Source of the DNA: Octopus vulgaris
Lineage: Eukaryota
Direction of reading: 5' to 3'
Length of the DNA: 64,000 nt
Assembly: GCA_951406725.2 (NCBI GenBank)
Contig: OX597820.1
Coordinates: 73,904,001-73,968,000 of the forward strand
The notes beneath the pieces were generated by a model that worked only from the letters and a program-made list of their open reading frames with translations, was not told where the DNA came from and searched no databases. The translations under genes and the position numbers were made by a program. Every line of letters starts with the position of its first letter. The first letter of the stretch is position 1. This document shows, piece by piece, positions 2,005-62,445 of this stretch.

Positions 2005-2400
2005 CTTTTCTACTCTAGGTACAAAGCCCGAAATTTTGGGGGAAGGGGCCAGTCGATTAGATCGACCCCAGTTCGCAACTGGTACTTAATTTATCGACCC
2101 CGAAAGGATGAAAGGCAAAGTCGACCTCGGCGGAATTTGAACTCAGAATATATAGACAGACGAAATACCTATTTCTTTACTACCCATAAGGGGCAAAACA
2201 TAGAAGACAAACAAGGACAGACAAACGGATTAAGTCGATTATATCGACCCCAGTGTGTAACTGGTATTTAATTTATCGACCCCGAAAGGATGAAAGGCAA
2301 AGTCGACCTCGGCGGAATTTGAACTCAGAACGTAACGGCAGACGAAATACGGCTACGCATTTCGCCCGGCGTGCTAACGTTTCTGCCAGCTCGCCGCCTT
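2005..2400 (-). mobile_element. tRNA-derived SINE family A, two nested/tandem copies (a further partial copy lies at ~1815-1990)
   Basis: Reverse complement of head aaggcggcgagctggcagaaacgttagc, B-box gagttcaaattc, body cctttcatcctttcggggtcgataaa and tail ...aaagaaata. Matches many other copies in the window. Confidence 0.85.
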
Positions 2401-4730: not shown

Positions 4731-4951
4731 TCCAGTTTCAGCTAATGAGCTGTGGCCATGCTGGGGCACCGCCATTTGGAGAGTATATTTTTTAATATTT
4801 TTCTTGGGCCCAAAGTCTTTTAAAACCAATTACCCGTATAAGTCACCGAGATCACAACATTTCTCCGAATGGAATGCTGATGCAGGGTTCGAAGCCAGAA
4901 TTTGAATGGGACAAGTTGATTAAATCGACTCCAGTACTTGACTGGTACTTT

Positions 4952-5368
4952 AAGGCGGCGAGCTGGCAGAAACGTTAGCACGACGGGCGAAATGCTTAAC
5001 GGTATTTCATCTGTCGTTACGTTCCGAGTTCAAATTCCGCCGAGGTCGACTTTGCCTTTCATCCTCTCGGGGTCGATAAATTAAGTACCAGTTACGCACT
5101 GGGGTCGATATAACCGACTTAATCCCTTTGTCTGTCCTTGTTTGTCTCCTCTATGTTTAGCCCCTTGTGGGTAATAAAGAAATAGGTATTTCGTCTGCCG
5201 TTACGTTCTAAGTTCAAATTCCGCCGAGGTCAACTTTGCTTTTCATCCTTTCGGGGTCGATTAAATAAGTACCAGTTACGCACTGGGGTCGATATAATCG
5301 ACTTAATCTGTTTGTCTGTCCTTGTTTGTCCCCTCTGTGTTTAGCCCCTTGTGGGTAGTAAAGAAATA
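4952..5368 (+). mobile_element. SINE family A dimer (second copy starts mid-head at ggtatttcgtctg)
   Basis: Full copy at 4952-5184, second copy at 5185-5368, followed again by agtatttcgtctgc. Confidence 0.88.
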
Positions 5369-7066
5369 AGTATTTCGTCTGCTGCAAGTACCCACCATCC
5401 AGGCCCCCAGACCCACAAGCATTTACAAATCCACTCTTAAGGTAGACATGCTACTTACTTTTGTTGAGAAGAACGGGTAATAAGATGGTAACAACAAGGT
5501 CCTTGAAAGCTTCTCTAAAAGTGGGTTTTGCGAAGTAACAGGATCCTGAAAATGAGACCTAACCGCTACTTTACGCGAACTTTCTAACGATTTTCTTAGT
5601 TTCCAAGAGTGTCATATTCAACAATTGCTCTGTGTAGTTTGTCTGGTTGTTCTGCCAAACTAATTATTAAATGTTTTTCTTTTATGGTACTGAATGTTCT
5701 AATAACAAATGGAAGTTCCTATCACGCTGTTCCACAAAATTTTGATCTCGAAATCCAACCCACGATATTTATTTATATTCTCAAGTTTCTGGGACCACCA
5801 TATTAACGAATAGACAGAGGCTTGTCTTTTTATTGTAGGTTACTATTTCTGGTCAATTGGGTGTTGTCATAAAAACTTTATTGATATTCATATGCAACAT
5901 GGAAATTATATCACTGACATGTTGAAGTGTTTATACCAGTATTTGATTTGTTAAAAAATAGTAAATAAATCTCCCTCAATTCATACCCTGCTGTCATATC
6001 GAAGGGAAGAAAACACCGGAATATTATAGTCTTAGATAAATTGTGGATGAACTAACGAAGGAATGGTCACGGCTTTGAACATAAGTTTGCTGAATCATAA
6101 TTCACTTATGTTCAAGTCTTTAATGCTTTCTGTTTGATAAAATAAAGGGCTGGAGATGAGGGTCGGTGATATCGCCTAAAACTTCGCCTAGAAATTTACT
6201 GGTTTTGAATCAATAAAGAGCAAGGAAAATTGCGTATGCTGTGTTCAAACCAGTACCGAGGAACTGGACGGTGAAAATATCCTCTAAAAGTTTGGTCTTT
6301 TGATGTATAAATATTGACTTCACATTTTTGAACAATGCTTGCAATTTCGGGTGAGGGGGGTATATCGATATCATCCACCCTAGTGCTGAACTGGTACCTA
6401 TTTTATCGACCCCGAAAGGATGAACGACAAAGCTGAACACAACAGGATTTGAACTCAGAACATGAAGACGGATGAAATGCCGCTAAGCATTTTGCCCGAC
6501 GAGGTAACGATTCTACCATAGACAAAGTGTCTGTGAGGCAATGGGCTTTGTGTGTCGTTGTGTTGTGTCTTTATGAATTGGCTGAATAGTCTTGGACAGG
6601 GAAGGATATTTGTGTGTGTAATAGTATCACAGTTCTAGAAATCTGTAATATTCATGAAATTAATTTGTAAAGCAGGCAAAAGACCACAATCTTGTTTTAG
6701 CTGGAAAGGGAATAGGTTAGTAATTGGGGGTATAATCAAATGGTCAATAGAATTAACTGAAATACTTACAAATTGTTTACTTTATTGATATTGAGAAGAA
6801 TGAAAGGCAAGAGCCATCATGGGTCTTTTTGAATTTATAATGTAAAAGGTCTTAAACTAAATACAGAAAATAACGTGTCTGTTGCTCTACTGATGCTGCC
6901 CATCAATTGCTGGTTCCTTAATATTGATTTCTAGCATAACATATAAGATATGAATTTAGAGGGAGAATATATTCTCTTATACCTAAAACGCCGCTGATCC
7001 ACGAACTAACAACACACACAGAGCGAAACTGCTAGGACATTCCGGACATTGACTGAGGATGTTCCG

Positions 7067-14531: not shown

Positions 14532-15119
14532 AATTAATTGGTTAACATTTAACAAAAATTAACTGATCGATTGGTTAATTGATCGTTCGGTTGCTCGATC
14601 AACCAACCAGTTTTATCAAAGCCTTTTCGTCGCCATTCGCGACTCCATCAATGACATGGCCTCTTTACTCCATAGCTAAGCAGACTGAACCATTATTCAA
14701 ACAATCGATTAGATAATTGGTTGAATGGTTGACCAAGTGACAAATAAATATAAATAAGTGAAATAGAACCAGTGATTGTGTTTATTATTGACATAACGAC
14801 CCTCAAGAAATACGTTCCTACAGACGAGTTCAAATGAAGAATCTTGCAGACCAAATACAATTACAAAACATTCAAGATATATAAGAAGAACGAGATGGTC
14901 ATGTTAGGAATGCCTTAGATCTAAGATCTGCTCGATGAAAGCCAGCATGAGGCAATTACTTTTAATAATGATTTCAAATTTTGACACAAGACCAGCAACT
15001 TTCGGAGGAATGGGATTAGTCGATTGCATCGACCCTAGTACTTATCTGGTATTTATTTTATCGCCCCCCCCCCCGAAAGGATTAAAAGCGAAATGGACCT
15101 CCGTCTGTCCGTCTCTCCG

Positions 15120-15154
<35 letters not shown>

Positions 15155-15269
15155 TAAGTATCAACACTGAACAGTTTACGAACAAAGATTTCCAAGCAAA
15201 TGGAATTGAATTTATTCAATACGCCTACCCATCAACATGACTACATGGAAGATCATAACTTCAGAGAAA

Positions 15270-16810
15270 GAAAAAAATCAAAGTGGTCGACCAAAAGAAT
15301 TATATATACACAAAAAAAAAAGCAGAATGCAGATGGATTGGAGTTATACTGGGGGTGCGAAAATCGTGTGTGCAAGGCGAGACTTTACACGAATGAAAAT
15401 TATAAAGAGCTTAAGAAAAGTGGGATCCACAATCACGCTTCAACTGCTGCAGAGGTAAATGCAAGGATGATAGTTTCAAATATTAAAGTAAAGTCTGTTT
15501 CATCTCGTGATGCCCCTCGCTCAATTATCGCTTGTGAAGTTCAGAATTTAAACGACTGTACATTCTTGCAAATAACTTAATAAGAATATTAGACATCGGA
15601 GACAAGCTGATTCCAACTATCCTGCCACTTCATTTACAAATGTTGGGGTTTTCCATTCCAAGTAAATACTCTTGCCTTGACAATGATGAAACGGTTTTAC
15701 AATATGACAGCAGCATGGAAGATACAAAACGAATACTAATATTCGACAGTTAAAACAGCACAGGAACTGGTCGGCAGATGGAACACTTAATTGCTGCTCT
15801 GGTATATTTTTCCAGCTATATATACTTCACATTCAAATTGATAATTTTTAATGTCTCACGATTGTTCGCATTACTCTTTGACAAAAGTCAAGACACATAT
15901 AATAGACTTTTTGCCAAAATAAACGATTAACTACAGAATGAGGGATTTCGAAAAAGCCACCCATAACGGATTTCTGGAATCGTTTCCTGGGTCGAATTTG
16001 GCATGCTGTTTGTTTCATTTAGGACAAAATATGTACAAGCATGTTGTTCAAGAAGGAGTAAAATGCAGATATCATGAAAACGACAGTTTTAGTCTAAAAA
16101 TGCGGTGTTTTGTTGCCTTTGCCTTCCTGCCGGTTGATGATGTTGTAGATGGATATGAACAACATATACATGATGATGATATTCCACAGTCAATTGTATC
16201 CTATTTTGAAAATTATATAGGACCACCTAGAGGAAGAGAACATAGGAGGTGACGCCTTGAACCTCCATTTCCATTACCTGTATGGAATGTTTGGGATCTA
16301 TGTATGACAGGGATTGCTCGTACTACAAATAGTTTAGAAGCCTATCACAGCGTGCTGAAAAACATAGTGAATATTAGTCATCCAAATATTTGGAAACTTA
16401 TTGGTGTGATTAAATGTGAGGAAATATTTGCCAGTATCAAACTGCAAGCTTATGTAAGGAGAAGAATCAAGCCAAAAGAAAAAATACTGAGATACGAACC
16501 TGAGTATAAAAATACTGAGAATCGAACCTGAGTATAAAAAATGTCATGGAAAAATATGATTCAAGCCAAATAATTATTCTTGTAAAAGCAATTACACACA
16601 ATATTAAATTTTAAGAAAAGATAAATATGCAATACAGCAAACTTTAAAATAAACGTTTTTTTTTAATTCAGATATTTGTTCATCCATTTTTCCTATGATC
16701 TCGACGTATTGACTGATGACGAATTGACTTGGGGGCGAATTGACCAACGACGAATTGACTGGGGACAAATTAAACGACGATAAATTGTCGTCGACGAATT
16801 GACCGGACAC
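15270..16810 (+). mobile_element. Decayed MULE (Mutator-like) DNA transposon: FLYWCH-like domain plus MULE transposase
   Basis: ORF pieces YWGCENRVCKARLYT...HNH, DFEKA...CLFHLGQ and RTTNSLEAYH, broken by stops and frameshifts. Repetitive gaattgac terminal region ends ggacacc at ~16810. Confidence 0.85.
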
Positions 16811-17535: not shown

Positions 17536-17578
<43 letters not shown>

Positions 17579-17806
17579 TATTATCATAATTACTTCAAAA
17601 TTTTTCCACAAGGGCAGCTTAGGGGAGGTGGTAATGAATCTATCACATCGACCTCAGTGTTCAACTGGTACTTATTTCATCGACTCTGAAAGAACGAAAG
17701 GCAAAGTCGACCTCGGCGGAATTTGAACTCAGAACGTACAGACGGGCAAAAAAAAAACCGCTGAGCATTTCGTCCATAGTGCTAACGATTCTACCAGCTT
17801 GCCGCC

Positions 17807-17925
<119 letters not shown>

Positions 17926-20794: not shown

Positions 20795-20874
<80 letters not shown>

Positions 20875-21849
20875 CAATAATTTTTATTATAGGTACAAGG
20901 CCTGAAATTTGTGTGTGCTTGTGTATATGGGGTGAGGGTGGGGCAAGTCAATTATATAGACCCCAGTGCGTAACTGGTACTTATTTCATCGACATAGAAA
21001 AAAATGAAAGACAAAGTCAACCTCGGCAGAATCTGAATTCGGAAAGGAAAGAGCCAAGCATTTTGTCCGCGGTGTTAACGATTCTGCCATTTCATTGCCT
21101 TCTGAGTATAATAAAATGTCAGTTTGAAACCATCTCCTATCCATTGAAAAGAGAAGAAAAAATGTGACAACGACGGTAAATTCCAGTACATCAAAACAAG
21201 CAACGAATCACTTATTTCTGTTACATTCTATCTCTTGATTTAGGGGCCTTTATTTCAACACTAGGCGTGGTATAAGTCTGACTTTATCATAACATTATAT
21301 TATCTATTTGTTTTATACGTATCACCATTTCACTTTGGCAGTATTCTCTTACTTAAACGTTCGCAGTGGAGATTACCTTTGCCGCCATTTATTTAGAGTT
21401 TTGTCGACGTAGAGGAGTTCTTTCCTTCTCCATCCTACCCACTGTACTAAGAAAAGAGCCCTGTTGTTGTTTTTGTCTTGTTTGAGCACTTCTTCGGTTA
21501 TACTATATCTCGGTCAGTTGATGATCCGTTGACCCTGAGCAAATTTCTATTGCATTATATAATTGGTGCCTACACACGACACGGACATACACTTATATAC
21601 ACAGATGATGTGTTGTAGCAGTCGCAGCCTGCTGTACTGTGTATAGCAAATATTTCCAGCGGATCAACGATGGGAAAAACGCAATGCCGAAGCTGACTGG
21701 CCACTTTGAATGTTGTCATTATCAATGAAATTAATGACTGTTCATCTGTAACATGTTACCTGTGGCAGCCTTGCTGATCCGATCGTAACGTCACAATAAA
21801 CTGTATTAAAATAATAGTATGTAATATATATATATATATATATATGTAA

Positions 21850-22943: not shown

Positions 22944-23176
22944 AAGGCGGAGAGCTGGTAGAAACGTTAGCACGTCGGGCGAAATGCTTAGTGGTATTTC
23001 GTCTGCCGTTGCGTTGTGAGTTCAAATTCCGCCGAGGTCGACTTTACCTTTCATCCTTTCGGGGTTGATAAATTAAGTACCAGTTACGCACTGGGGTCGA
23101 TGTAATCGACTTAATACCTATGTCTGTCCTTGTTTGTCCCTTCTATGTTTAGCCCCTTGTGGGTAATAAAGAAATA
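22944..23176 (+). mobile_element. SINE family A, full length with ~20-bp TSD
   Basis: TSD ggtatgactatgctatgaca at 22925-22944 and 23177-23196. Confidence 0.92.
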
Positions 23177-27950: not shown

Positions 27951-28185
27951 AAAGGGCAGCGAGCTGGCAGAAACGTTAGCACGCCGGGCGAAATGCTTAG
28001 CGGTATTTCGTCTGCCGTTACGTTCTGAGTTCAAATTCCACCGAGGTCGACTTTGCCTTTCATCCTTTCGGGGTCGATTAAATAAGTACCAGTTACGCAC
28101 TGGGGTCGATATAATCGACTTAATCCGTTTGTCTGTCCTTGTTTGCCCTCTCTGTGTTTAGCCCCTTGTGGGTAGTAAAGAAATA
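27951..28185 (+). mobile_element. SINE family A, full length
   Basis: TSD ggaatag(g/c)tataaag at 27940-27954 and 28186-28200. Confidence 0.9.
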
Positions 28186-37583: not shown

Positions 37584-39679
37584 GCATACATATTTACAAA
37601 TATATTTCGAGGGAGAGAGAGAGAGGGGAGAGAGAGAAAGAGAGGGAGAGAAAGAGATAGATTATACAACATAAGTTGTTATATTCCTACCCATCCAATT
37701 CATTACAGATGTCAGTCCTTAAAAGGGTCTTCGAAATCAGAGAATTGAAGTAAAGCATTCCAGGCTACTCAAGAGGCAACAGTTGCAAGGTCAAGCTTTT
37801 TAAGATCATGCCCCCCCCCCACCTCACCCCCGGTCGTTTTCATCCCTTTATCTTCTAATATTCATGATATCCACTGATATTCCTTAAATGATTTGTTCAA
37901 AACAACATCAAGGAACAGAAGAAGACTAGTCAAAACACATGGGTTTATAGTTTGATGAAAGAAGGCATCAGGAAAAACGCTTAGCGGCGTTTCTTCTGGA
38001 TATATACATTTTGAGTTCAAATTCCGCCGAGGTCGACTTTGCGTTTATCCTCTTAGGGTCGACAAAATGAAGTACCGATCGAGAAGAGGGGTCGATGAAA
38101 TCGATTATCTCCTCTGCCAAAATTTCAAACCTTGTGCCTGTAGTTGAAAAAAATTATTATTATTTTTAAAGGAGTAAACTGGCAGCGCGTCGTTAGCGCG
38201 TCGGGCAGAAATGCTTAGCGGCATTTTTTCCGGTTCTTTACGTTTTGAGTTCGAATTCCGCTGAGGTCATCTTTGCCTTTTATCTTTTCGGAGTCAATAA
38301 AATAAAACTAGCTGAGCACTGACTTACACCTTCCCTTCAAAATTGCAGAGGTTGTACTAACAATTTAGAACTATTATAGTTTGATGAAAGGCGGCGAAGA
38401 ATTGGTTTTGTCTTTTGAGTGTTGGATAAAATGCAACTTGGTATTTGTTACTTCAGTTCGAATTCTGCAGAGGCCAACTTTGTCTTTTATCCTTTCAGGG
38501 TCGATAAACAAGTTTCAATTCAGTGAGGAAAGGGGGCGGGGTGGGGTAGACTGACAAAACTGTTAGAGCATCGGGCGAGATATTTTGTGATATCTGCATA
38601 GTATCCTTGCATTCTAATGGCCAAGTTGTATCGGTCTTTCGTTATTAAATTTCTCACCAAAATGCACCCCTTATGAGTTTCAATTAAATTCTAAAATAAT
38701 CATGTATCTAGACTAATTTCACTAAACAACTTTCTTTTATTTATTAATATATTAATGTAATTTTGGAACACAATTGGAGGAAATGTTCTTAATCAATTCT
38801 ATTGCATAACTTTTTATCTCAAAGCGACTCTGATTGCAGGTCAATACAGCAATATATACATAGAAAATGAGTCATCAGCTAATATTCAATTGGGTATGTA
38901 ACAAAAATTCTTAATATAGAAGAATTGTGCACATCACTAGATTATTAGTTGAATTTAATGCACATAAGAACAGGTTAAATAACATGAAATGAAATACCGG
39001 AATTTGTTTTTGAAGAAAACTAGAAAATTAAATACACCAACTAAACAAACTCACACAGATACACGAATACGCAAGAACATATATAATAAAGATTTACAAT
39101 AGACATTAAATGAAAACTTGTTACTCACCTTACAGATAAATTAAAATTACAGGTAGATAAAATGTAAAAACGAAGTAAATGAAAAAAAAATATTTATACG
39201 ATCTAATCATACATATATACAATATTCATACAATATTTCTGTCATGGAAACTTGTAAAACATCCCACTCTACATACTGCAACCTTGCAGAATGCACATTT
39301 GGATGAAGTTTCAACTGGCTGTCCACTGGGAGTTTTTCTTTGTTGATGTAGACATTCACGGCACTACCTTTTGCAACCCTCAATTTTTTTCTAACTTTTT
39401 GAGATCGGCTGAACTCAGAGCGATATCTAACTGGCAGGTTTTGCTTTTCTTTCCTACAGTTACTCTTTTACTCTTTTACTCTTTTACTTGTTTCAGTCAT
39501 TTGACTGCGGCCATGCTGGAGCACCGCCTTTAATCGAGCAACTCGACCCCGGGACTTATTCTTTGTAAGCCCAGTACTTATTCTATCGGTCTCTTTTGCC
39601 GAACCGCTAAGTGACGGGGACGTAAACACACCAGCATCAGTTGTCAAGCAATGCTAGGGGGACAAACACAGACACACAG

Positions 39680-39712
<33 letters not shown>

Positions 39713-40089
39713 CATATATACGACAGGCTTCTTTCAGTTTCCGTCTACCAAATCCACTCACAAGGCATTGGTCGGCCCGAGGCTATAGTAGAAGACACTT
39801 GCCCAAGATGCCACGCAGTGGGACTGAACCCGGAACCATGTGGTTGGTTAGCAAGCTACTTTATTTCATATAATTTGCCATTTAGGCATTTACAAAGAGG
39901 GGACAAACAAGGACAGACAAATATAAAGGGTGAAGTAGCTTAACACAGTTACAATTTTCGAATGAAATTACGGATAAGATTATAAACAATGAATTTTACG
40001 AAGGCAATGTTTAAAAATATTAATGATCATGTCGAAAGACGGACACCCAGCCATCCGGGTAGAACCTTTACTTTCTGATCCGGTCACAC

Positions 40090-43000
40090 TTACCTGGTGC
40101 CAAACATACCCATCTTGTATGCCACGGGCTTCCATCTTTTCACAAACATATCTCGTGACAGACACCTCTTCTCCAGCCTGATTTTGCTACTGAGGTGGTA
40201 ACTGAAAAAGTTAATCAACCCCTGGCCGGAGACAAAGGTGCCTGTCACTATACCTTTCGTACGCGTCTTCCATACTATTTCTTTCAGTATGGCTACTACA
40301 CAGAAAAAACAAGCCTTTCTTTCCCTGTTAAGGAAAGGGGGCGGCACAATCTCGATGATAGACTCAGCTGATAGCTGTACTCTTCCCATCACTGACAACA
40401 GTTGTTCAACAAAAGCTATCAGTCCCGATAACTCCGGACACTCCACGAATGCGTGCAAGACGGTCTCCCTATCCTGCTCACATCGCGGGCATGTCGGCGA
40501 GACGGCACTACCGTGCCTTGACAGCTTGTCGCGAACAGGTAAAGCTGCACGGAAACACTGCCAGGCTAGGGATTTCTGGTAATTATCCAGATACCCCGGC
40601 CCGAACGTCCTCCGGAACAGGTTGACCAACTGATTTTCATCGTAGCCCAGGGTCTCCCCCAAGGCGTCTTCGGACTTAATCTCCACTAACCCGCTATAGA
40701 AATCCGTGGTGGAACTCCTGTTGCCGGCGTTGCCCACCCGAGATAGTAGCTGGAGCGCCTGACGGCACTCCAAATGCCATTCACTCGGTTTAGGTCTCCG
40801 CTTGATCCATGCACCGATGTCCGTTAGGGATGTTAACTGGGGAAGGTAGAACCGGACGTGCGGCGACCACACCTGCTCTCCATCCAGGTAAAGCCAGAGG
40901 TGCCTCAACCTTAACGCGAGTTTTCGCATCCTCAGCCAAGGCATCCCTAGCCCACCCTTTAGCGGTTTCTGGCAGCAGACAGAGCGCTTTACAAGTGGCT
41001 TTCCTCCTTTCTACAAAAATCGGAAAAGGATTCTCTCCAACTTGTTCAGCCACAAATCGGGGCAAGGCACCACGGTCAGACGGTAGGTGATTACTGATGC
41101 TATAAACATCTGCACCACCTCCGCCTTCCCTAGCAGGGATAACGCCCGCCCAGACCAGGTCTGGGTTAGAGCGGTCACCTTGTTGGCCACCTCACTCCAA
41201 TTTTTCTCAATCTGGAGGTCTGGCCCGAACCAGACTCCGAGCAGCTTAACAGGACCTTCCGTCCAACGCCCTACGACGTTATTGGACGGCATCGGCTTGC
41301 CCCTCCAGGTGCCGAGTTGCAAACCGACCGACTTGTCCTTGTTAACCTTTGCTCCTGCCACCACCTCGTAGCTTTTCATGGCCTCTTCCACCACTGGAAG
41401 CTGGCCTTCGTCTGCCACGATGATGGAGGTGTCATCCGCATACTCCGTAGCTCCTCTTCCACACCATAGATCATGCGGCGCGCCCCCTAGTGCCTCCAAC
41501 TTCCGCAGCAAAGGCTCAAGAGCCAATACGTATAGGAGCGAGGACAGGGGACACCCTTGACGAACTGAACGCTCGATCCTGAACGGCTTCGAAAAGGAAC
41601 CGTTCACCTTGACTACAGACTCGATGTCGCTATACAAAGCAGCGATCCAACCTCGAAAGGTCGGGCCTAGGCCAGCCTCTCCGAGGACCGCCGCCAGGTA
41701 CCGATGGTCGACCCTATCAAATGCTTTGGACTGGTCTAAATGTACCAGTGCTCCCCCTGCGCCAGAAAGCTTCCCCACCCTCTCTAAGGAGTAGCGTATA
41801 AGGTGGAGATTATCGTGGATCGTTCTGCCGGGGATAGCGCACGTTTGCGCTTCCCCGACAAGTTTGTCCACGACCCGCGCCAACCTTTTTGCTCGCACCT
41901 TGGCCAGAATCTTTAACTCTGTGTTTAACAGAGTTATGGGCCTGAAGTTCCCTATCTCGTCCCCCTTGTTCGGGTCCTTCCTGATCAACGTCACCGCCTC
42001 CCGGCTCGCAGACTTGGGAATTCTCCCATTCTGCTGCCAGTTGGCGTAGACGCTAGCCAGCAGGTGCCCGAACAAGTCCTGGCATACTTCTATAAAATTC
42101 ATAGGGCAGACCATCGAGACCCGGCGACTTCTCCCCGGGGCACTTGCCCAACACCTCGATTACTTCCTCGGTTGTGATTGGCCCTTCACAGCACTCAGCC
42201 TCTCGTGTCAAGAGGCGCGGGCCACCAGACAGGAAGTCCCTAATGGCCTCACCATGATCCAGCGTCCCGCACCTCCCGGACAACTCGGCGAAGTGCTTGT
42301 GAAGTGCCTCACACATCTCGTCCCGCTTCTTGATCGTGCATCCGTTTTCATCAATAAGAGACCCAATTGTGGCATCGTTTCCACGCTGTGTTTCTATCGT
42401 ACGGGCCCATCCGGCAACATTAATTCCCTCACGGCCCAATGCTCGTACTTTAGCCCGGACTCTACATCCCTCATGTTTGGTTTTGAGGTGACGGTCTAAT
42501 GCCGTTCTCGCCGCTAAAATGTGAGATGCAGAGCCCAACCTCAACGCCTCCTCTAAGTTCTTAACTAGTTGCCCTTCTATTCTAGCCCTATCTAGTCTTA
42601 GTTGTTTACTAAATCTAATGGACTCGAATCGAATGGCTCTTTTGAGGGTGAACCACTACCGGTTATTAACCACGGCTCCGGTTAACGCCCTCTGCACTAA
42701 CACCTTAATCCGGCTACGGTATGCCTCGCGTGTCAAAATAGACTTGTTCAACTTCCAGTAGCCGGTTCCTATCTTAAGTGTGCTATCTATGTCCAGTCTA
42801 CACGTGACCATTCTATGGTCAGTATAGGGCACCTGGACGAGCTGTGGACAACTAAAACTAGACTTATCTCTAGTTCTTATCACTATCCTGTCTAGATAAG
42901 ACTTGAACCTTCCGTCGCCACTCATCCAGGTCCACTCTGGGACGTTCGGATGGTCAAGTCTGTAACGATCTGCTAGCTGAAACTGCTTAAGCAGATCCAC

Positions 43001-43492
43001 GAGACGTGAGTTCACTTTCCTATAGATCGAGCCAACGCTATCGATGTGTACGTCAACGATAGCATTAAAGTCCCCTAATATCACTAAAGTCTTCGACGTC
43101 ACGAGAAAGCCCTCTAGGCGCCGATAAAAATCAGTTTGGAAATCTCTAGCACAAGGTGCATAGAGTCCGATCAACCTGAAGGCCTTACTGCTGTATGTCA
43201 CATCAAGGACGACCAGCCCACCTTCTGGGTCTACATAGACTATACTTGTCTGTAGAGCCAAGTCTTTACGGATCAGTACCACTACGCCCCCTCGCCCTCC
43301 GGTCTGGCCAGGAGACATGATTTTCTCGTAGCCATTCAGGAGAGGCGAGAAGGTTTGTAGGCTGTCCAGCTTGGTCTCTGTAGCAACCATCACATATATA
43401 TCATGTGATCTGAGGTCGTCGAGGAAACAAGCCTGCTTCCACTTCGAACTCAGACCACGCACATTTAAACAACCAAGGTTAAGCGAAGCCAT
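40090..43492 (-). pseudogene. LINE ORF2: APE endonuclease, reverse transcriptase and zf-RVT (two premature stops, one frameshift)
   Basis: LNVRGL, ETKL, GDFN, YLDRI, TDH (APE); FRPITLLN, DQSKAFDRV, RQGCPLS, YADD (RT); CPRC..ETVLHAFVEC. TAG stops at 42656 and 41011 are in frame with the downstream ORFs; frameshift at ~42085. Confidence 0.93.
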
Positions 43493-43509
43493 TACAAAAA
43501 GTAAAAGTT

Positions 43510-44935
43510 CTACTTACATTTCGTTGGAGAGGTGGGGGCCGACCTCACCACACGTTTGTGGGCCCCTTCTTTCTCCTCTTTCTTCAGATAGTCCGGCAAG
43601 TTCGCGATATGCCGGATGGCGTTTGGGTGTCTGTCTTTTAATTGTTTGAACGTTGTTTCCGCAATCCACGCGTGTCTATTTCGATCTTTGTATTTGTTGT
43701 ACAGTTTTGCTGACTGATGCTGAACCACAATATCGTTTATGTATTTGTCTTGTGTGTCGAATTCAATTAATATGAGTTCATTTTCTTTTTTGTCTTCTTT
43801 TTCTGGGCCAGTTGAGCGGGATTTTTTTTCCGTGTCTGTGGTGTGTCTTTGTTTTTATTATTTTTTGTAGGGGATGTGGACGGGGATGCTGCACGAATTC
43901 TTTTACGAACTGGTGTAAATCCCACCTCTGATACCTTCATGGTATCGTCTGGGGTAGCAATTGTTTGTTCGGTAGGCGCCGCAGTTTTTAGGGGGTGGGA
44001 GGTTTTAATAGTGTAGGGGTTTGTGAGTGCGAGGGCTGGGTTTTTTCTTCAGTCTGTTTTGGGGTTGGCACCGTAACAGCAGGAGTGGGATTTTTTGTTT
44101 TTGTAGGGGTAGGTGCGTTTGCAAGGGTAGGGACTTTTTTATTATCTGAGGGGCCTGGTGTCTGCGGTTTCTTTTGCTTGTCTGGACAGTCTACACGAAT
44201 GTGGACCTTTTTGCCGCAGGCGTAACAGGTGGGTTTTCGGCCTTCGACCTGTACCCTGAGGGCTACGTTCTCGCCCACGAGCACCCTCTCAGGAAGGAGC
44301 TGCAGGTCCTCCGCTGTTCCTTGAATTAATATATTAATGTTACGCCCGAGCCAAAATCGAGGGGTAGAGCATGTTACTTCTAGTATTTTTATTTTGTCCG
44401 CCCTTTTATATAACAGGGCGGTCACTACCTCTACCGGATCTACTTCCGGCGGGGCTTCTACAATTCTGACCCGGGACGTCCTGCGTCCCCTATAGCTTGG
44501 GAAAAGTACCACCTCCTTGGTTTTTAGGGGGTTCACAGAATGCCCGCGGGCCATTTCTTCCCCCGAGAAGCGGACATCCACAGTGCCATATGCCCGTCCC
44601 CTGGCGACGTACACGATGTCCTTCCAAATCGGGGATAGGCATTTCTCGATGGTGCTTTTTTCAAAGTGTTTGAACCTTCTGCTTTGTGGACAGAAAGTTT
44701 TAAACACTACGGTCCGCTTCTCGGTCTCCACGATACTGGCGGAGGGTGATATTTTAACATCACCACCCTCCTCTTGCATTCTTTTAAATAGCTCGACGAG
44801 CTGGTTGACATCGAAGTCAATGTTCTCGGTAGCCACTGCGGCTACCGCAGAACATTTTTTAACATTGCTCTCCTCAAGAGCACTACTTTCGTGAATAATT
44901 TCAACAGACATTATTCTGTTGAAATTAGACAACAC
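43510..44935 (-). pseudogene. LINE ORF1, gag-like protein with CCHC knuckle (disrupted)
   Basis: 315-aa ORF with CYACGKKVHIRVDC and a Pro/Thr-rich tail; apparent continuation to 43510 in another frame. Confidence 0.75.
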
Positions 44936-47326
44936 AAAAATTACGAGTATTGGTTTCCCACAAAACTGGGAAACCTATAGAAAGTTTTTCTTCCAAAGTA
45001 GTTCAAAAAGCAGTTCAAAAATTCCAATTCCCACCCCCATTCGGGGGAGGGGCACGAAAATAGTCTGGCAGGACTATATATAGTCACGTAAATAAAAAGC
45101 CACAGTGGCTAACAGTTCAACGGTAAGAAATTATTCAATTATTTCCCGGTAAAACCGGAGAACAAGACAGTTCAGCAACGTTTAAAGGCAAATTTTCAGT
45201 AGTAGGAATTCAACAATTAACAACACAGCAAAACTCTTACCGGGAAGAAAACGCGTCCAAACCGTAGTACGGTAGGCAAAGTCACTCTTCTGTCAGTGAG
45301 GTTAGCAAGCTACTTACCACACAGCCACTCCTGCGCCAGTTATTTTTTTTTTTGTAGGAATAATCTGCCCTCAATTGCGTTACTACATCTGCTTGGAACT
45401 GCAGATGGTCGCACCGCTTTCGAGCCCCTCCTGGTTTGGTATATAATATAAACGCATTTACATCCCTCATGTTTACTATATACCAAATCAGGTATCGCCA
45501 CCATATACTATCCTGTCTACCAACCAGATGATAGCACATCATTTGGTTCAGCCGATCTGCACTGCCCATGTACCTGTTATAATCGAGGTTCACAAACAAG
45601 GTGCACCGGTAGATAGAAAATAGATCTGCCTCTTATCTCTGTATGCGATCGCTAGCAGATTTCCTTTCTGCCGTTGGATTATTTTCTTTTTTGAAATTTT
45701 GCTTTATTTTTAAATATCCAACGGCAGCCCTTTTCTACTAGCAATTACTCTTTTCTACTCTAGGCACAAGGCCTGAAATTTTTGGGGAGGGGGCCAGTCG
45801 ATTAGATCGACCCAGTAGCTAACTGGTAGTTAATTTATCGACCCCGAAAGGATGAAAGGCAAAATCGACCTTAGTGGAATTTGAACGCAGAACGTAATGC
45901 CAGACGAAATAACTTATTTCTTTACTACCACTCTGCCAGCTCGCCGCCAGCTTCTAAATCCGCTGCAAGTTTGACCGAACTAAAAAATCGGTAAAAGAAA
46001 TATTATAAAATCCTGGTTATGGTATGGAAGTAATAAATTCCAGACCACATCGTACCCTAGGCCCTTCTGACGAACATTATTGTCTCTTTTCCCAGTATAA
46101 AAAATAAACCCACAGAAATTCCCAGTATTTGCTTCGAAAATTTTCCAAACTTTGATCCCCCACGTTCGTGGGCTTTCCTGGCATATATTGTCGGAAGTGT
46201 ACCCTTCTTTTATACCTCACTATGTCCTCATCGACGGATACATATCAGGGTTATAGAGTGTTTTATATGCGTTCTGGATGCAGTCGAAGAGGGGTCTTAC
46301 TTTAAAGAAGAGATCAAAGTTTGGTTCTCCACATACTGGGGTACTGTTTGTGTCTCTCACATGTAAATACTGGTTCAGTTTCACAAATCGTGTCCTTGAC
46401 ATAATACTGGAAACGTACGATCGCCAAAAGATTCCTGATTATTCCAAGTAATTTGTAATTCTGGGTAATTGTTTTATACCCATAATAACATTTATGGCAA
46501 AAAAAAAATGCCCGTATTTCTTATGGCAAAAAATGCCCGCATTTTTTTCCAGTTAGTTTACATTCTGCATAGCGGTTTATTTTCGCATTGATGGCTTCAA
46601 ACAAGCTTACTTGAAAAACAAGAAAAAAGGCTTAACGGTTTCGCTTTCTGAGAAAGACTATGTATAGATCCTGTCTCAGAAAAATTGTTAATAAAAATAT
46701 TTTAAAACTTTTTACTCCATTCAGGTGTAAAATCGTCCTCAATGTCACTATTGCTGCTTTTAGTTTTTTCAGAATCGCTGCTTTCAGTTTCGGACACAGA
46801 AATATCCGATTCATTTTCATACACCACGTGCTTTTGTAGTTCACTCATACTTTTGCTCGATTTCTCAATATCTTCCGTTAAAAAGCCCTCAAATTCAGAA
46901 TCACTGCTTGATAGCATGAAACTCCTATCCATTTTAAAAGTTGAAGAAAATCGTCGAAGAAAAAATGTGAAAAAAATCTCTCAAAATTCACAGAGTTCAG
47001 ACATCACGCCAAACAATGTCGGATGCTATTACTCGATTATTTACAAAGTGAAGTCACGCATTTTCACGAATGCACTAACGAGATTTGTGTTGAAATTCAC
47101 ATTTAAATAACAATGGGTTCTCTCGGCTGGGTTGGTCGGTTGAACCAAAAAACTTTTCAGCCGGCTGCGGCCGGGTTGGTATCCAAAGGGTTAAGATAAA
47201 CCTTTCCTTTTCACAATACAGCTGGAATGTAGACTGAAGACATGCTTAGGCAACAACCAGTCTTCCATCCGCTCCAAAAAAAAAAAAAAAGGACAACAAA
47301 CCATTCCTTAAGTCTGTACCTACAGA

Positions 47327-54039: not shown

Positions 54040-56472
54040 ATATTTAATTGAAAGTTAATCATCAATGTACTTTCCCTGATTATCTATGACTTGCTTCCAT
54101 CTCTTTACAAGCTTTTTAATCCCATCAATGTAAAACTCTTTTGGTTTCAAAGCGAAGAACTCGTAAATGTCAGGTTCGACCTCCTCCTGGCTTGCGAAAG
54201 TTGTGTCCCCCAAATAATTCTGTAAACTATTAAAGAAATGGTAGTCTGAAGGAGCAAGGTCGGGAGAATAAGGTGGATGAAGAAATTTTTCCCAATCGAC
54301 CTCTTCGATCTTCTGTGATGTGATCTTTGCAGTGTAGGGTTGCGCATTGTCCTGATGAAGCGTCACTCGTTTTCGACTCACTAAAGCGGCCCTTTTTTCT
54401 TTCAAACCTTGGTTCAAACGCTCTAATTGCTGACAGTAGACTTGAGCATTGATTGTTGCATTAGGTGGTAACAATATAAAGTGAATTACGCCTTTGCAAT
54501 CGCACCAGATAGAGAGAATAACCTTTTCCTCATGAAGCTCCCTTCTCAGTTGTGGTTGAGCATTTTCTTTTTTACCAAGCCACTGTTTACGATGTTTTAC
54601 ATTTCGATAGAAAATCCATTTTTCGTCACAAGTCTATCGAAAATGGATGAAATGAGTTTGCGAGAATGGAGAGAAGAGCAGATGCCAACTCGGGATTTGC
54701 GGTTGCTATCGGACAATACATAAGGCACCTATTTTCCAAGTTTAGGAATCTTTCCACGTTGTTGAAGATGACGATGAACAGTTGTATGGTTTGAAGTAAG
54801 CTTTATTGCCAATTCTTCAACTGATAATGACGGATTTTCTTCAAGTAATGCCTCAAGGAACTTATCATCAAACTCAACTGGACGTCCTTTTCGATATTCA
54901 TCTTCAATTTTGAAAACGATCTCCTGCAAGTTCTATCATTCAAGCACTTTCCCATAAAATGAGTATGTTTCGAGTCACTTCGGCTGCAGCGTAACCTTTA
55001 TTGTACTCATAAAGAATCATATGTGCCTTAAATGCTCCTTGGATACTTCCATGTTAAAAGGGTTTTAATCAAAGCAATTTTAGGGTGTCCACGAAGTCTG
55101 GGTACATGAAATAAAATCATAACATAAACAAATAAATATAAGAAATAATAAATTTCCTTTTTTACTTTTATTTAAATTAAATAAAAAAAACTTTACTTTT
55201 CTAAATTTTTTTGTTATTTTTTCTACAGATGATCGAATGATAGCTCTGTCTAAAGAAGAAAGAATCGAGTTGGTATTATTAAGTAGACGAGATGGATGGT
55301 CTTACGCAAAATTGCGGAAGAATTTAATCTTCGACACCCTTATAGGCAACCTATTTATTTTACTGCCGTCGGGAAATTGATCAAGAAATTTAAAGAAACA
55401 GGCAGTGTTTTGGATAAACCCCGTTCCGGGCGACCAAAGACTTCAGATGAAACGAAAGAGGCTGTCATGGCTAAAGTTTCTGCTAGCCCAAAGAAATCAC
55501 TTCGTCGGACATCCACGGTGTTAGGTGATCCAAATCCAACCATCCACAAAATGCTGGTTGAGGAAAAGTTTCATCGATACAACCTACAGATATTGCATCA
55601 CTTAAATGAAGACGACCCTGATAGACGAATGTAGACGTGCGAATGGCTCTCAGATAAAAAGGATGAAATATCAATTTTACGAAAAACTTTGTGGTCAACT
55701 GATAGAATCTTCTATACTGGTCTCGAGGTAATCCACATTGGATGGATCTATCCAAACAAGCAAGGCAGCAAAAAGGTGATAGTGTGGTGTGGTTTGTGGA
55801 AAGCTCTTGTTCTAGGACCCTTCTTCATTGAACATGTAACGGATGAGACTTATGTAAACATATTGAAAGACAAATTATATCTCAAATTGAGCGCCTAGGC
55901 AAGAGCCTTCCGAATTGGTTTCAGCAGGGTGGGGCCCCTACCCATTTTGCCACAACTGTTAAAGATTGGCTTCATGACACTTTTCCTCACTGGATTGAAA
56001 GAAGGGCTCATATGGAAAGGTCCCCTCGTTCACCAGACCTTTCTCCCCTTGATTTCTTTTTCTGGGGTATGTTGAAAGAGAAAGATTACAGATTTAAAAC
56101 ACATGAGAGAACGCATTACCAGTCAGTGTGCTGAAATTGATGGCAATGTAGACTTATTTAATCAAGTTCACCTGAATTTAGCAAGGCGCATCAAGTTATG
56201 CATTGAAAAATGATGGAAATCACTTTGAAAATATTATTTATTAGTATTATAATTAAATAAAATTGTTTTGTTTTAAAAGTATGTGTTAATCTCCATGTAC
56301 GCAGACTTTGTGGACACCGTCTATTATTTTGTAAAACAATATTTAATTAGTTTAAACGTACACAAATGCATAATAATAATTTTTAATTGAATTAGACATT
56401 TGAAAATACTATTAAATTTCATTCAAATCTAAAAAAAAGGTAAAATTGGACAGAACTGATTGGATGACTTGA
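54040..56472 (-). mobile_element. Decayed mariner (DD34D-type) transposon interrupted by a nested element
   Basis: HQDNAQP and HPPYSPDLAPSDYHFF motifs (ORF 54055..54474), HTH region 54729..55050, and a 5' TIR-like end near 56445-56472. Confidence 0.85.
55083..56320 (+). mobile_element. Tc1/mariner-superfamily element, rosa/DD41D-like (spacing counted as 40), decayed
   Basis: TIRs ggtgtccac.aagtctg.gtacatg at both ends. KFKETGSV.D.PRSGRP and FQQ(G)GAPTH...SPRSPDLSPLDFFFWG. Confidence 0.85.
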
Positions 56473-57237: not shown

Positions 57238-57581
57238 GCCGTAGCGTCGACTGTGGGCTGGTAGCTGTGTACAGTCGCCCCAATGGCGTCCAGAGCGAGC
57301 TCTGGTCGCCGTAGCGTCGACCGTGGGCTGGTAGCTGTGTACAGTCGCCCCAATGGCGCCAAGAGCGAGCTCTGGTCGCCGTAGCGTCGACCGTGGGCTG
57401 GTAGTTGTGTACAGTCGCCCCAATGGCGCCAAGAGCGAGCTCTGGTCGCCGTAGCGTCGACCGTGGGCTGGTAGCTGTGTACAGTCACCCCAATGGCGCC
57501 CAGAGCGAGCTCTGGTCGCCATAGCGTCGACCGTGGGCTGGTAGATGTGTACAATCGCCCCAATGGCGCCCAGAGCGAGCT
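57238..57581. repeat. GC-rich 70-bp tandem minisatellite, ~4.9 units, preceded by (GAACC)n
   Basis: Units start at 57238, 57308, 57378, 57448 and 57518 with few substitutions. Confidence 0.95.
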
Positions 57582-59454: not shown

Positions 59455-59687
59455 TATTTCTTTACTACCCACAAGGGGCTAAACACAGAGAGGACAAACA
59501 AGGACAGATAAACGGATCAAGTCGATTATATCGACTCCAGTGCGCAACTGGTACTTATTTAATTGTCCCCGAAAGGATGAAAGGCAAAGTCGACCTCGGC
59601 GGAATTTAAACTCAGAACGTAACGGCAGACGAAATACGGCTACGTATTTCGCCCGGCGTGCTAACGTTTCTGCCAGCTCGCCGCCTT
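59455..59687 (-). mobile_element. SINE family A with 15-bp TSD
   Basis: tataatatcagacta at 59438-59452 and 59688-59702. Confidence 0.92.
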
Positions 59688-61199: not shown

Positions 61200-62445
61200 G
61201 GTATTAAGCTGTTCTATAGCAGCACCAACAGCTGCAGCAGCAACAACGACTAGTGTTACTACTCCCACCACCAATACTACTACTGCTGCTACCACCATCG
61301 CCATTACTACTACTACTACTACTATAACCCAATCACCATCGCTACAACTACAGCGGCCATCTCTATATCTTCACTACCAGCTCCACCACCATCATCATCA
61401 ACAACAAACTCTACTACCAAATTTTGGCACAAGGCCAGCAATTTTAAGGGATGGTGTAAGTCGATTGCAACGATCCCTGACCTCAACTGGTACTTAGTTT
61501 ATCGACCCCAAAAGGATGAATGCCGAAGTCGACCTCTGCGGAATTTGAACTCGGAACTTAAAGACGCACAAAATGCTGCTAAGCATTTCGCCCGGTGCCT
61601 AACGATTCAGCCAGTTCACCACCGTTGCTCCACCAAACACATTGAAACGACTACACTTAGACTATCAACCCTATCACCACCACAACCACCACCATCTCGC
61701 CAATATCATCACCATCAGCATCGCCACCACCATCGCCAACATCGCCACAATCGTCAGCACCATCACCACCATCACTCCCACCACCACCACCATCATCGCC
61801 ACCAACACCGTCACCACCATCACCATCACTATCATCATCGCCATCATCATCATCATCATCACCATCGGTGTCATCACCAGCATCATCGCTACCAATGAAA
61901 GGAGCCAAAAATAGAACCCCTCCACCACCACAGCCACCACCAATACTAACATAACCACCAGCACTAGCACCACCAGCACTAGCGCAGTACCTACCACCAC
62001 CACCACCACCACCACCACCACCACCACCACCACCACAACCACCACCACCACAACACCACCACCACACCACCACCACCACAAACACCACAAACACCTAAAC
62101 CAGCACCAGCAGCCCAACCAGTAGCAGCACCACCATCTACCACCACCGCCACCACCACAAAAAGCAAAACCACCTCAACCACCCACCCCAACACCACCAA
62201 CCACTCCACCAATAACACCAAAACCACTTCCCTCTTCATGGCTACCGCATGTACCACCACCACCAGCACCACCGTTACCACAAAACGCAAACCACCACCA
62301 TTACCACCACCACCACCACCACCACCACCATTACCACAAAAAGCAAAACCTCCACAACCACCCACCCCGCCACTCCATCACCAACACCAAAACCATTTCC
62401 CTCTTCATGGCTCCCGCATACACCACCACCACCATCACCACCTCT
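61200..62445. repeat. Degenerate CAC/CAT/CAG low-complexity region with a SINE-A fragment
   Basis: Directly visible; produces the His/Pro/Gly-rich spurious ORFs. Confidence 0.9.

Follow-up and report, generated by a model that had tools for sequence, protein, structure and literature searches.

A full-length LINE and two SINE families

The 64-kb stretch of Octopus vulgaris DNA analysed here (the window) contains a full-length LINE that sits within the head of a SINE, SINE-B, and six copies of a distinct SINE, SINE-A (Table 1). The LINE belongs to the L1 group: it has two ORFs, an N-terminal APE endonuclease in ORF2 and a reverse transcriptase closest to L1. Pfam recognises the endonuclease (E 2.7e-13), the reverse transcriptase (E 1.8e-26) and, above its cut-off, a zf-RVT domain (E 1.7e-9) in ORF2. 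The best PDB matches of the endonuclease are to L1 ORF2p (E 9e-14), and the reverse transcriptase scores 98–100 bits against L1 ORF2p versus 52–68 against R2 structures. The best named protein relatives come from Argonauta hians (62% identity in the reverse transcriptase), Octopus sinensis (52%, C-terminus) and a cuttlefish (50%). Two frameshifts in ORF1 together with two stops and a frameshift in ORF2 identify the copy as dead, and the 64 kb hold neither a second copy nor any other LINE fragment.

Table 1 Features of the LINE, its host SINE-B and the SINE-A copies (positions within the window)
Feature	Position	Strand	Remarks
Full-length L1-group (probably Tx1-type) LINE	39862..45299	-	single dead copy; bounded by TSD
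ORF1	43510..44911	-	weak CCHC zinc knuckle (Pfam zf-CCHC E 0.023, under the curated cut-off; three-frame translation); two frameshifts
ORF2	40090..43492	-	APE endonuclease, reverse transcriptase, zf-RVT; two in-frame stops, one frameshift
LINE 3' UTR	39862..40089	-	228 nt
Shared block	39892..39921	-	26 nt exact to SINE-A 5311-5336; 29/30 to six-copy consensus; mostly unpaired by prediction
LINE tail hairpin	39876..39888	-	4-bp stem, 5-nt loop TAAAT; 7 nt past the 26-nt block
LINE terminus GAAATA	39862..39867	-	forms an AATAAA hexamer together with the first two TSD bases
LINE TSD, 3' copy	39846..39861	-	16 bp, 16/16 identical
LINE TSD, 5' copy	45300..45315	-	16 bp
SINE-B head, 5' piece	45316..45338	-	cut by the LINE just past an A-box-like motif
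SINE-B remainder	39461..39845	-	AAAGAGT repeats at end; no long TSD
SINE-A, A1	4953..5184	+	full length; 3' end abuts family head site
SINE-A, A2	5185..5368	+	copy cited in the original prediction; headless tandem unit; 16 nt of head-site sequence come next; lacks its own TSD
SINE-A	2170..2399	-	full length; ends 3' against the head site of a sister-subfamily body without the block (about 2000-2169)
SINE-A	22945..23176	+	free-standing; perfect 20-bp TSD
SINE-A	27954..28185	+	free-standing; 16-bp TSD, 1 mismatch
SINE-A	59455..59686	-	free-standing; 17-bp TSD, 1 mismatch
SINE-A 3'-end fragment, 15 nt	45915..45929	-	inside sister-subfamily SINE 45746-45949, abutting head site; 28/29 to 5354-5381, E 4.8e-7

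To which branch of the L1 group does the element belong? Tx1 is the likely sub-clade. A C-terminal zinc-binding domain and a CCHC-bearing ORF1 are typical of the Tx1 clade; the zf-RVT of our element lies above its cut-off, the zf-CCHC of ORF1 below, and neither is exclusive to Tx1. The hairpin region of the endonuclease reads GDGR, nearer to RDGH, the reading given for Tx1L (PMC1950540), than to the APHH of L1. None of the 249 homologues that were gathered bears a Tx1 label. Among other molluscs, gastropod elements of the L1 superfamily have been reported as Tx1 (PMC11203168). For O. vulgaris itself 80 L1-Tx1 families are described, and the annotation of 2026 counts 13 L1-Tx1 families as recently active (PMC13282606).

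One homologue, P0125, carries the label of a Herbaspirillum MAG and is 53% identical to the C-terminus of ORF2; it is probably animal DNA in a metagenome bin. A profile of the ORF2 C-terminus gave 12 pattern matches in a bacterial and archaeal genome collection, none of which was confirmed. With one of six frames over the LINE tail, phmmer returned three multi-stretch matches; none of them matched the window by tblastn, so they are put down to chance. The four weak matches (about 42–50% over 14–20 residues) of the 249 proteins to the 3' UTR by tblastn were treated likewise.

The motif just past which SINE-B was cut was assigned by eye from the Pol III consensus and is taken to be A-box-like. 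SINE-B ends in AAAGAGT-type repeats and a hairpin, apparently with just a 6-bp duplication (read by eye). Adjoining it, at 45400–46500 (minus strand), lies a piggyBac-type transposase fossil in three pieces (Pfam DDE_Tnp_1_7, E 4e-11, 6e-7 and 7e-3) that is interrupted by a SINE. Xenopus Tx1 is described as targeting a piggyBac derivative (PMC4494074), whereas the immediate target of the LINE here is a SINE. The window also contains a Mariner-type transposase fragment (54058–54633, minus strand; Pfam Transposase_1, E 9e-24), an ORF with a weak FLYWCH match below cut-off (15158–15577, plus strand; E 0.0013), possibly a DNA-transposon remnant, and a tandem array of 70-bp period and about 95% identity (57238–57581).

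SINE-A copies are short, dispersed and non-coding. The six copies, of about 230 nt each, differ by 3–6% from their own consensus, all end at one identical base without an added tail, and the three free-standing ones are all flanked by TSDs. The SINE-A body finds 24 matches in the window. Six of them carry the block described in the next section, and many of the remaining 18 are truncated copies that stop short of the tail. These block-less relatives have the SINE-A head and body in common, their tails differ, and several end in (ATT)n. The head contains motifs, spotted by eye against the box consensus, that we take to be A- and B-box-like. ARAGORN called 0 tRNAs, and no tRNA family appears among the 150 of 287 Rfam matches listed, which are microsatellite artefacts under the gathering scores.

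Older members of the family (1790–1988, 15000–15100, 17560–17807, 20860–21098 and 61390–61623) keep a hairpin with the loop CTTGT and covarying stems. Several older members end in (ATT)n and one has (TTA)n on both flanks, which hints that the family once had a partner that targeted TAA repeats or added them; our guess would be Dong-R4. At 4913–4950 a truncated SINE-family body lies inverted, head-to-head with A1. It suggests a rearrangement, which may have removed the outer TSD of the A1/A2 array.

A block common to both tails

The original prediction claimed that the 3' end of the LINE contains 26 nt identical to the tail of SINE-A. Direct sequence comparison bears this out letter for letter (26 of 26 positions; LINE 39896–39921, minus strand, against SINE-A 5311–5336), far beyond chance; the identity is exact in one of the six SINE-A copies, which carry 0, 1, 2, 2, 2 and 3 mismatches. 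With up to six mismatches allowed on both strands, the motif occurs at seven places in the window, namely in the LINE and the six SINE-A copies. A 20-nt core is matched seven times at up to three mismatches, against 0.02 expected, and is exact in the LINE and three of the six copies. Of 30 positions in the LINE tail, 29 agree with the majority consensus of the six copies, a homology between SINE tail and LINE 3' UTR such as marks stringent pairs, and blastn aligns the UTR block with the SINE-A tail at E 3e-7.

Shuffled versions of the 228-nt 3' UTR give a longest common substring of 14 at most (900 trials), against 26 observed. Shuffles of the last 60 nt of the LINE reach 17 (2000 trials). When the 30-nt block is shuffled by itself with its trinucleotides preserved, the maximum is 22 (2000 trials). 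Chance is excluded as the origin of the match, given the seven core matches where 0.02 are expected and the absence of any shuffle that reaches 26. The exact 26-mer, sought in GTDB genomes as a sign of animal contamination, gave no match there.

After the 30-nt block, 8 of the next 20 positions match between LINE and SINE-A, and the last 30 nt of the LINE resemble the two SINE-A tails tested no better than shuffles do (p 0.53 and 0.81). Homology running to the terminus, a further feature of stringent pairs, is absent: past the block, agreement is limited to where the stem lies and to the final 6 nt, and the loops differ. Two old SINE tails among 12 tested gave p of about 0.03 each, which is not significant after multiple testing; the stem of the LINE tail equals that of an old SINE-family copy near 1850. 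Aligned with its sister subfamily, the SINE-A block appears as a 19-nt insertion ahead of a common CCCCTC-like stretch.

Tail anatomy

The LINE and SINE-A tails follow one layout: block, 7 nt, a 4-bp stem with a 5-nt loop, 6–8 nt and GAAATA, with stem and loop in the same gap-free register. The terminus lies 34 nt past the block in the LINE and 32 nt in the SINE, without poly(A), just as the predicted 30–35 nt would have it. When the last 34 nt of the LINE are shuffled, a stem in that register arises in 2.8% and a GAAATA end in 0.18% of cases, in two tests that were both picked post hoc. Folding separates the two elements: the LINE tail has a z of -2.1 (7 of 200 shuffles as good), but the six SINE tails range from -1.4 to +0.2 (15–113 of 200).

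Where does the hairpin come from? Its loop reads TAAAT in the LINE versus CTTGT in five of the six SINE-A copies and eight of 13 block-less relatives. The full four-pair stem is present in all six SINE-A copies and in six of the 13 other family copies, and the stems vary on both sides, that is, they covary. Because the CTTGT loop is common to SINE-A and its block-less relatives, the hairpin is older than the block. The idea that the SINE borrowed a LINE tail thus applies to some 30 nt, but not to the terminal hairpin, which belongs to the SINE family itself. Given the family-wide hairpin and the alignment of the block as an insertion, no whole LINE tail was swapped in; what sets SINE-A apart from the rest of its family is chiefly the block together with the last bases.

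Pol III transcripts would usually extend to the next T run downstream, whereas the six SINE-A copies have one end base in common. From this we infer positioned initiation, with reverse transcription of SINE-A starting at a fixed position.

Insertion signatures and nested arrays

Both elements had been predicted to carry TSDs of 15–20 bp. This is true of the LINE (16 bp) and of all three free-standing SINE-A copies (20, 16 and 17 bp for those at 22945, 27954 and 59686), but the SINE-A copy on which the prediction relied (5311) lacks one of its own; no TSD was found for A2 (5185–5368), A1 (4953–5184) or the pair as a whole. Among random flank pairs, a repeat of at least 15 bp occurs in 0.1% of 2000 trials. 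With low-complexity repeats filtered, a TSD of at least 15 bp was found at none of eight block-less relatives, whose ends are placed approximately, and at neither of two SINE-B copies. The block-less copies are 72–89% identical to the A2 body and therefore older, which makes them a weak control, and the filter drops one of them that has (TTA)n on both flanks.

The targets of SINE-A read CAAC^GGTAT, CAAC^AGGAAT and CATC^GATAG (caret, nick) and that of the LINE TGGT^AAGTAG. Within the window, the downstream bases agree loosely and the TSD lengths are alike, but the upstream bases differ (TGGT versus CA(A/T)C, from one LINE insertion). Downstream, the LINE fits with AGTAG when shifted by one base, for which we estimate a chance of about 5% from a motif frequency of 2.4%. 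The upstream mismatch may mean that a sister LINE family is the actual partner of SINE-A.

New here is where SINE-A ends come to lie: four of seven 3' ends (5184, 5368, 2170 and that of the fragment at 45915) lie directly against a single site in the SINE family's own head, some 47 nt from its start. This site fits the SINE-A target pattern, and the arrays are nested or tandem (4953–5384, 2000–2399 and 45746–45949). At two of the four junctions the sequence next to the SINE-A end is the body of a sister-subfamily SINE; plain tandem duplication at the DNA level could give the array at 4953–5368, but not these two. None of the arrays keeps an outer TSD, and the four junctions may not be independent. 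RNA read from a nested copy would continue past GAAAUA into GGUAU, which could base-pair with the nicked strand of the target. Such pairing may have shaped the target motif no less than the preference of the endonuclease.

How might SINE-A be copied?

The explanation that we favour, and to which we give even chances as a whole, is that this LINE family, or one closely related to it, copies SINE-A, for which the block serves as an acquired recognition element beside the small hairpin. SINE-A would here be a young branch within a larger SINE family of tRNA type. An L1-group LINE, probably of Tx1 type, would have supplied from its 3' UTR a pyrimidine-rich block of about 20–30 nt, the donor being the family of the present copy or a close sister family. 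SINE-A would have retained its own older hairpin, the loop sequence of which would carry lesser weight. In the proposed trans-mobilisation, the ORF2 protein of the LINE would bind the unpaired block and the nearby small hairpin, reverse transcription would begin at the fixed GAAAUA without a long poly(A), and the copy would be inserted with a TSD of 16–20 bp at sites like YA(A/T/G)C^GGTAT. Since the SINE head contains a site of this kind, SINE-A would insert into its own family.

The ages of the two elements are compatible with this. From two stops in 3381 ORF2 bases, with an assumed 4:1 transition weighting, the LINE is weakly estimated at about 1.7% divergence, with a wide 95% interval (0.2–6%) that overlaps the range of SINE-A. 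The LINE–SINE partnership of the original prediction stands on the block, the tail layout, the TSD lengths and the ages, and falls short where terminal sequence, loop and upstream target differ, all judged from one LINE copy. A switch of SINE-A to a Tx1-type partner is plausible.

Could the block be present without being recognised? A Tx1-type LINE might copy SINE-A while the block is a passenger, moved between RNAs by a template switch in reverse transcription, with recognition relaxed or dependent on the small hairpin and an A-rich end. The block is internal to the tail and not terminal, the SINE's own sequence flanks it, and 30 near-identical nucleotides beside about 40% identity are what a recent short transfer would leave. 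Its exact register with the hairpin in both LINE and SINE-A is harder to reconcile with a passenger, as are the long TSDs and the fixed end found in the block-bearing subfamily only, a change that a neutral sequence is unlikely to mark. Ordinary A:T priming, in turn, would be consistent with a LINE junction that overlaps AATAAA and a TSD that begins with AA, and SINEU is thought to use Tx1-Mar without a common tail (PMC4494074). On balance we hold a passenger block to be rather unlikely.

The transfer could also have run the other way, in that the block arose in the SINE and reached this one LINE copy, or its lineage, through gene conversion or a switch of template, the real partner being another LINE with a CTTGT-hairpin tail. 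This we consider unlikely: a captured SINE-A end should match through its last base, and the final 30 nt do not, the LINE tail has its own hairpin within a perfect TSD, and the block is not duplicated within the LINE 3' UTR (read by eye). Such a reversal or chimera would nonetheless fit the letters of the block, which repeats TTTGTC and contains the CTTGT loop motif, the density of the SINE family in the window, the single LINE copy from which the block is known, and the family-wide CTTGT hairpin with its covarying stems, as expected for recognition by another partner.

SINE-B holds a motif (39655–39680, minus strand, and in other copies) that follows an (AT)n(GT)n tract and resembles the block minus its central four bases (21 of 25 positions to 5309–5333, E 0.07). 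Chance or convergence of low-complexity T/C/G sequence, which this weaker look-alike and the repetitive make-up of the block might favour, is a very improbable account, as 26 letters are reached by none of 6000 block shuffles and none of 900 UTR shuffles and the distance of the block from the 3' end agrees too.

Comparison with known partnerships

The premise that L1-group elements are relaxed and poly(A)-dependent holds with exceptions, known from maize, sorghum and Chlamydomonas (PMC3747384). In ZmSINE2/3 and LINE1-1_ZM of maize and sorghum, and in SINEX-3_CR and L1-1_CR of Chlamydomonas, an L1-group LINE and a tRNA SINE are reported to have about 50–80 nt of 3' sequence and a hairpin in common, which was taken as stringent recognition (Ohshima 2012, 2013; PMC3472496, PMC3747384). 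In these plant and algal pairs the loop is conserved (PMC3472496, PMC3747384). Between SINE-A and the LINE it is not, and what is conserved precedes the stem on its 5' side. Table 1 of PMC3747384 includes neither a Tx1 partner nor an animal L1-clade pair.

In other LINE clades, stringent L2, CR1, RTE and Nimb pairs such as UnaL2 and UnaSINE have a short 3' region with a stem-loop in common, as is the case here (PMC3747384), and stem-loop binding has been described for ZfL2 (PMC4176376). These pairs also resemble SINE-A in that tails are exchanged between SINE subfamilies; tail exchange was described by Kojima in 2018, in a paper that, in its accessible text, never mentions Tx1 (PMC5786205). 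For bivalve SINEs the reported partners are CR1-Zenon, CR1, L2 and Nimb, with homologies of 35–61 bp at the 3' ends, compared with 30 bp here that stop about 30 nt before the end (PMC11481361). The combination of SINE-A and this LINE would work like a shared-tail pair, yet without homology through the stem-loop to the terminus.

As here, a Tx1-type LINE was inferred to mobilise SINEs in crocodilians, where SINEU is paired with Tx1-Mar (Kojima 2015, PMC4494074). Insertions there favour a site inside another repeat and include tandem insertions around the TSD, likewise matching our observations (PMC4494074). SINEU, however, is described as having snRNA heads and ending in poly(A), and a LINE with the SINEU-1 3' end was reportedly not found (PMC4494074); SINE-A has a putatively tRNA-type head, no poly(A) and a sequence block in common with the LINE. 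The link between Tx1 and SINEU rests on shared targets, not on the tail, and is the sole published Tx1–SINE link that we found (PMC4494074); one with a common tail was not found in open PMC and bioRxiv full text.

The octopus SINEs OK, OR1 and OR2 are reported to be tRNA-type and abundant in octopus (Ohshima and Okada 1994), in which SINE-A resembles them. The accessible text of the O. vulgaris annotation names no SINE partners for its L1-Tx1 families (PMC13282606). Nor did the same full text yield an octopus SINE–Tx1 pair; Repbase, Dfam, the Zenodo library of O. vulgaris and subscription papers, which lie outside that scope, may already have one. Four SINE or block sequence motifs led to no paper in the same open literature, and the SINEBase supplements, again outside it, may identify SINE-A and SINE-B.

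What the pair may mean for octopod SINEs

A broader reading is offered tentatively, as possible and somewhat doubtful. In an animal L1-group (Tx1) LINE, a short unpaired block may take the place of poly(A) as the mark by which the template is recognised. An octopod SINE may have switched partners by acquiring this block alone, ahead of an older hairpin of its own, without its tail being replaced as a whole. The switch would have brought long TSDs and a preference for targets in the SINE's own head, leading to nested arrays, and the RNA trailer of a nested copy may help to select the target by pairing.

SINEs account for 11.6% of the O. vulgaris genome, and the recently active families are described as mostly unclassified (PMC13282606). 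If confirmed, the octopod pair would bear on the ancestry of stringent 3' recognition in the L1 group. It would also offer a 30-nt element to mutate, and identify what has driven part of the SINE expansion in octopus.
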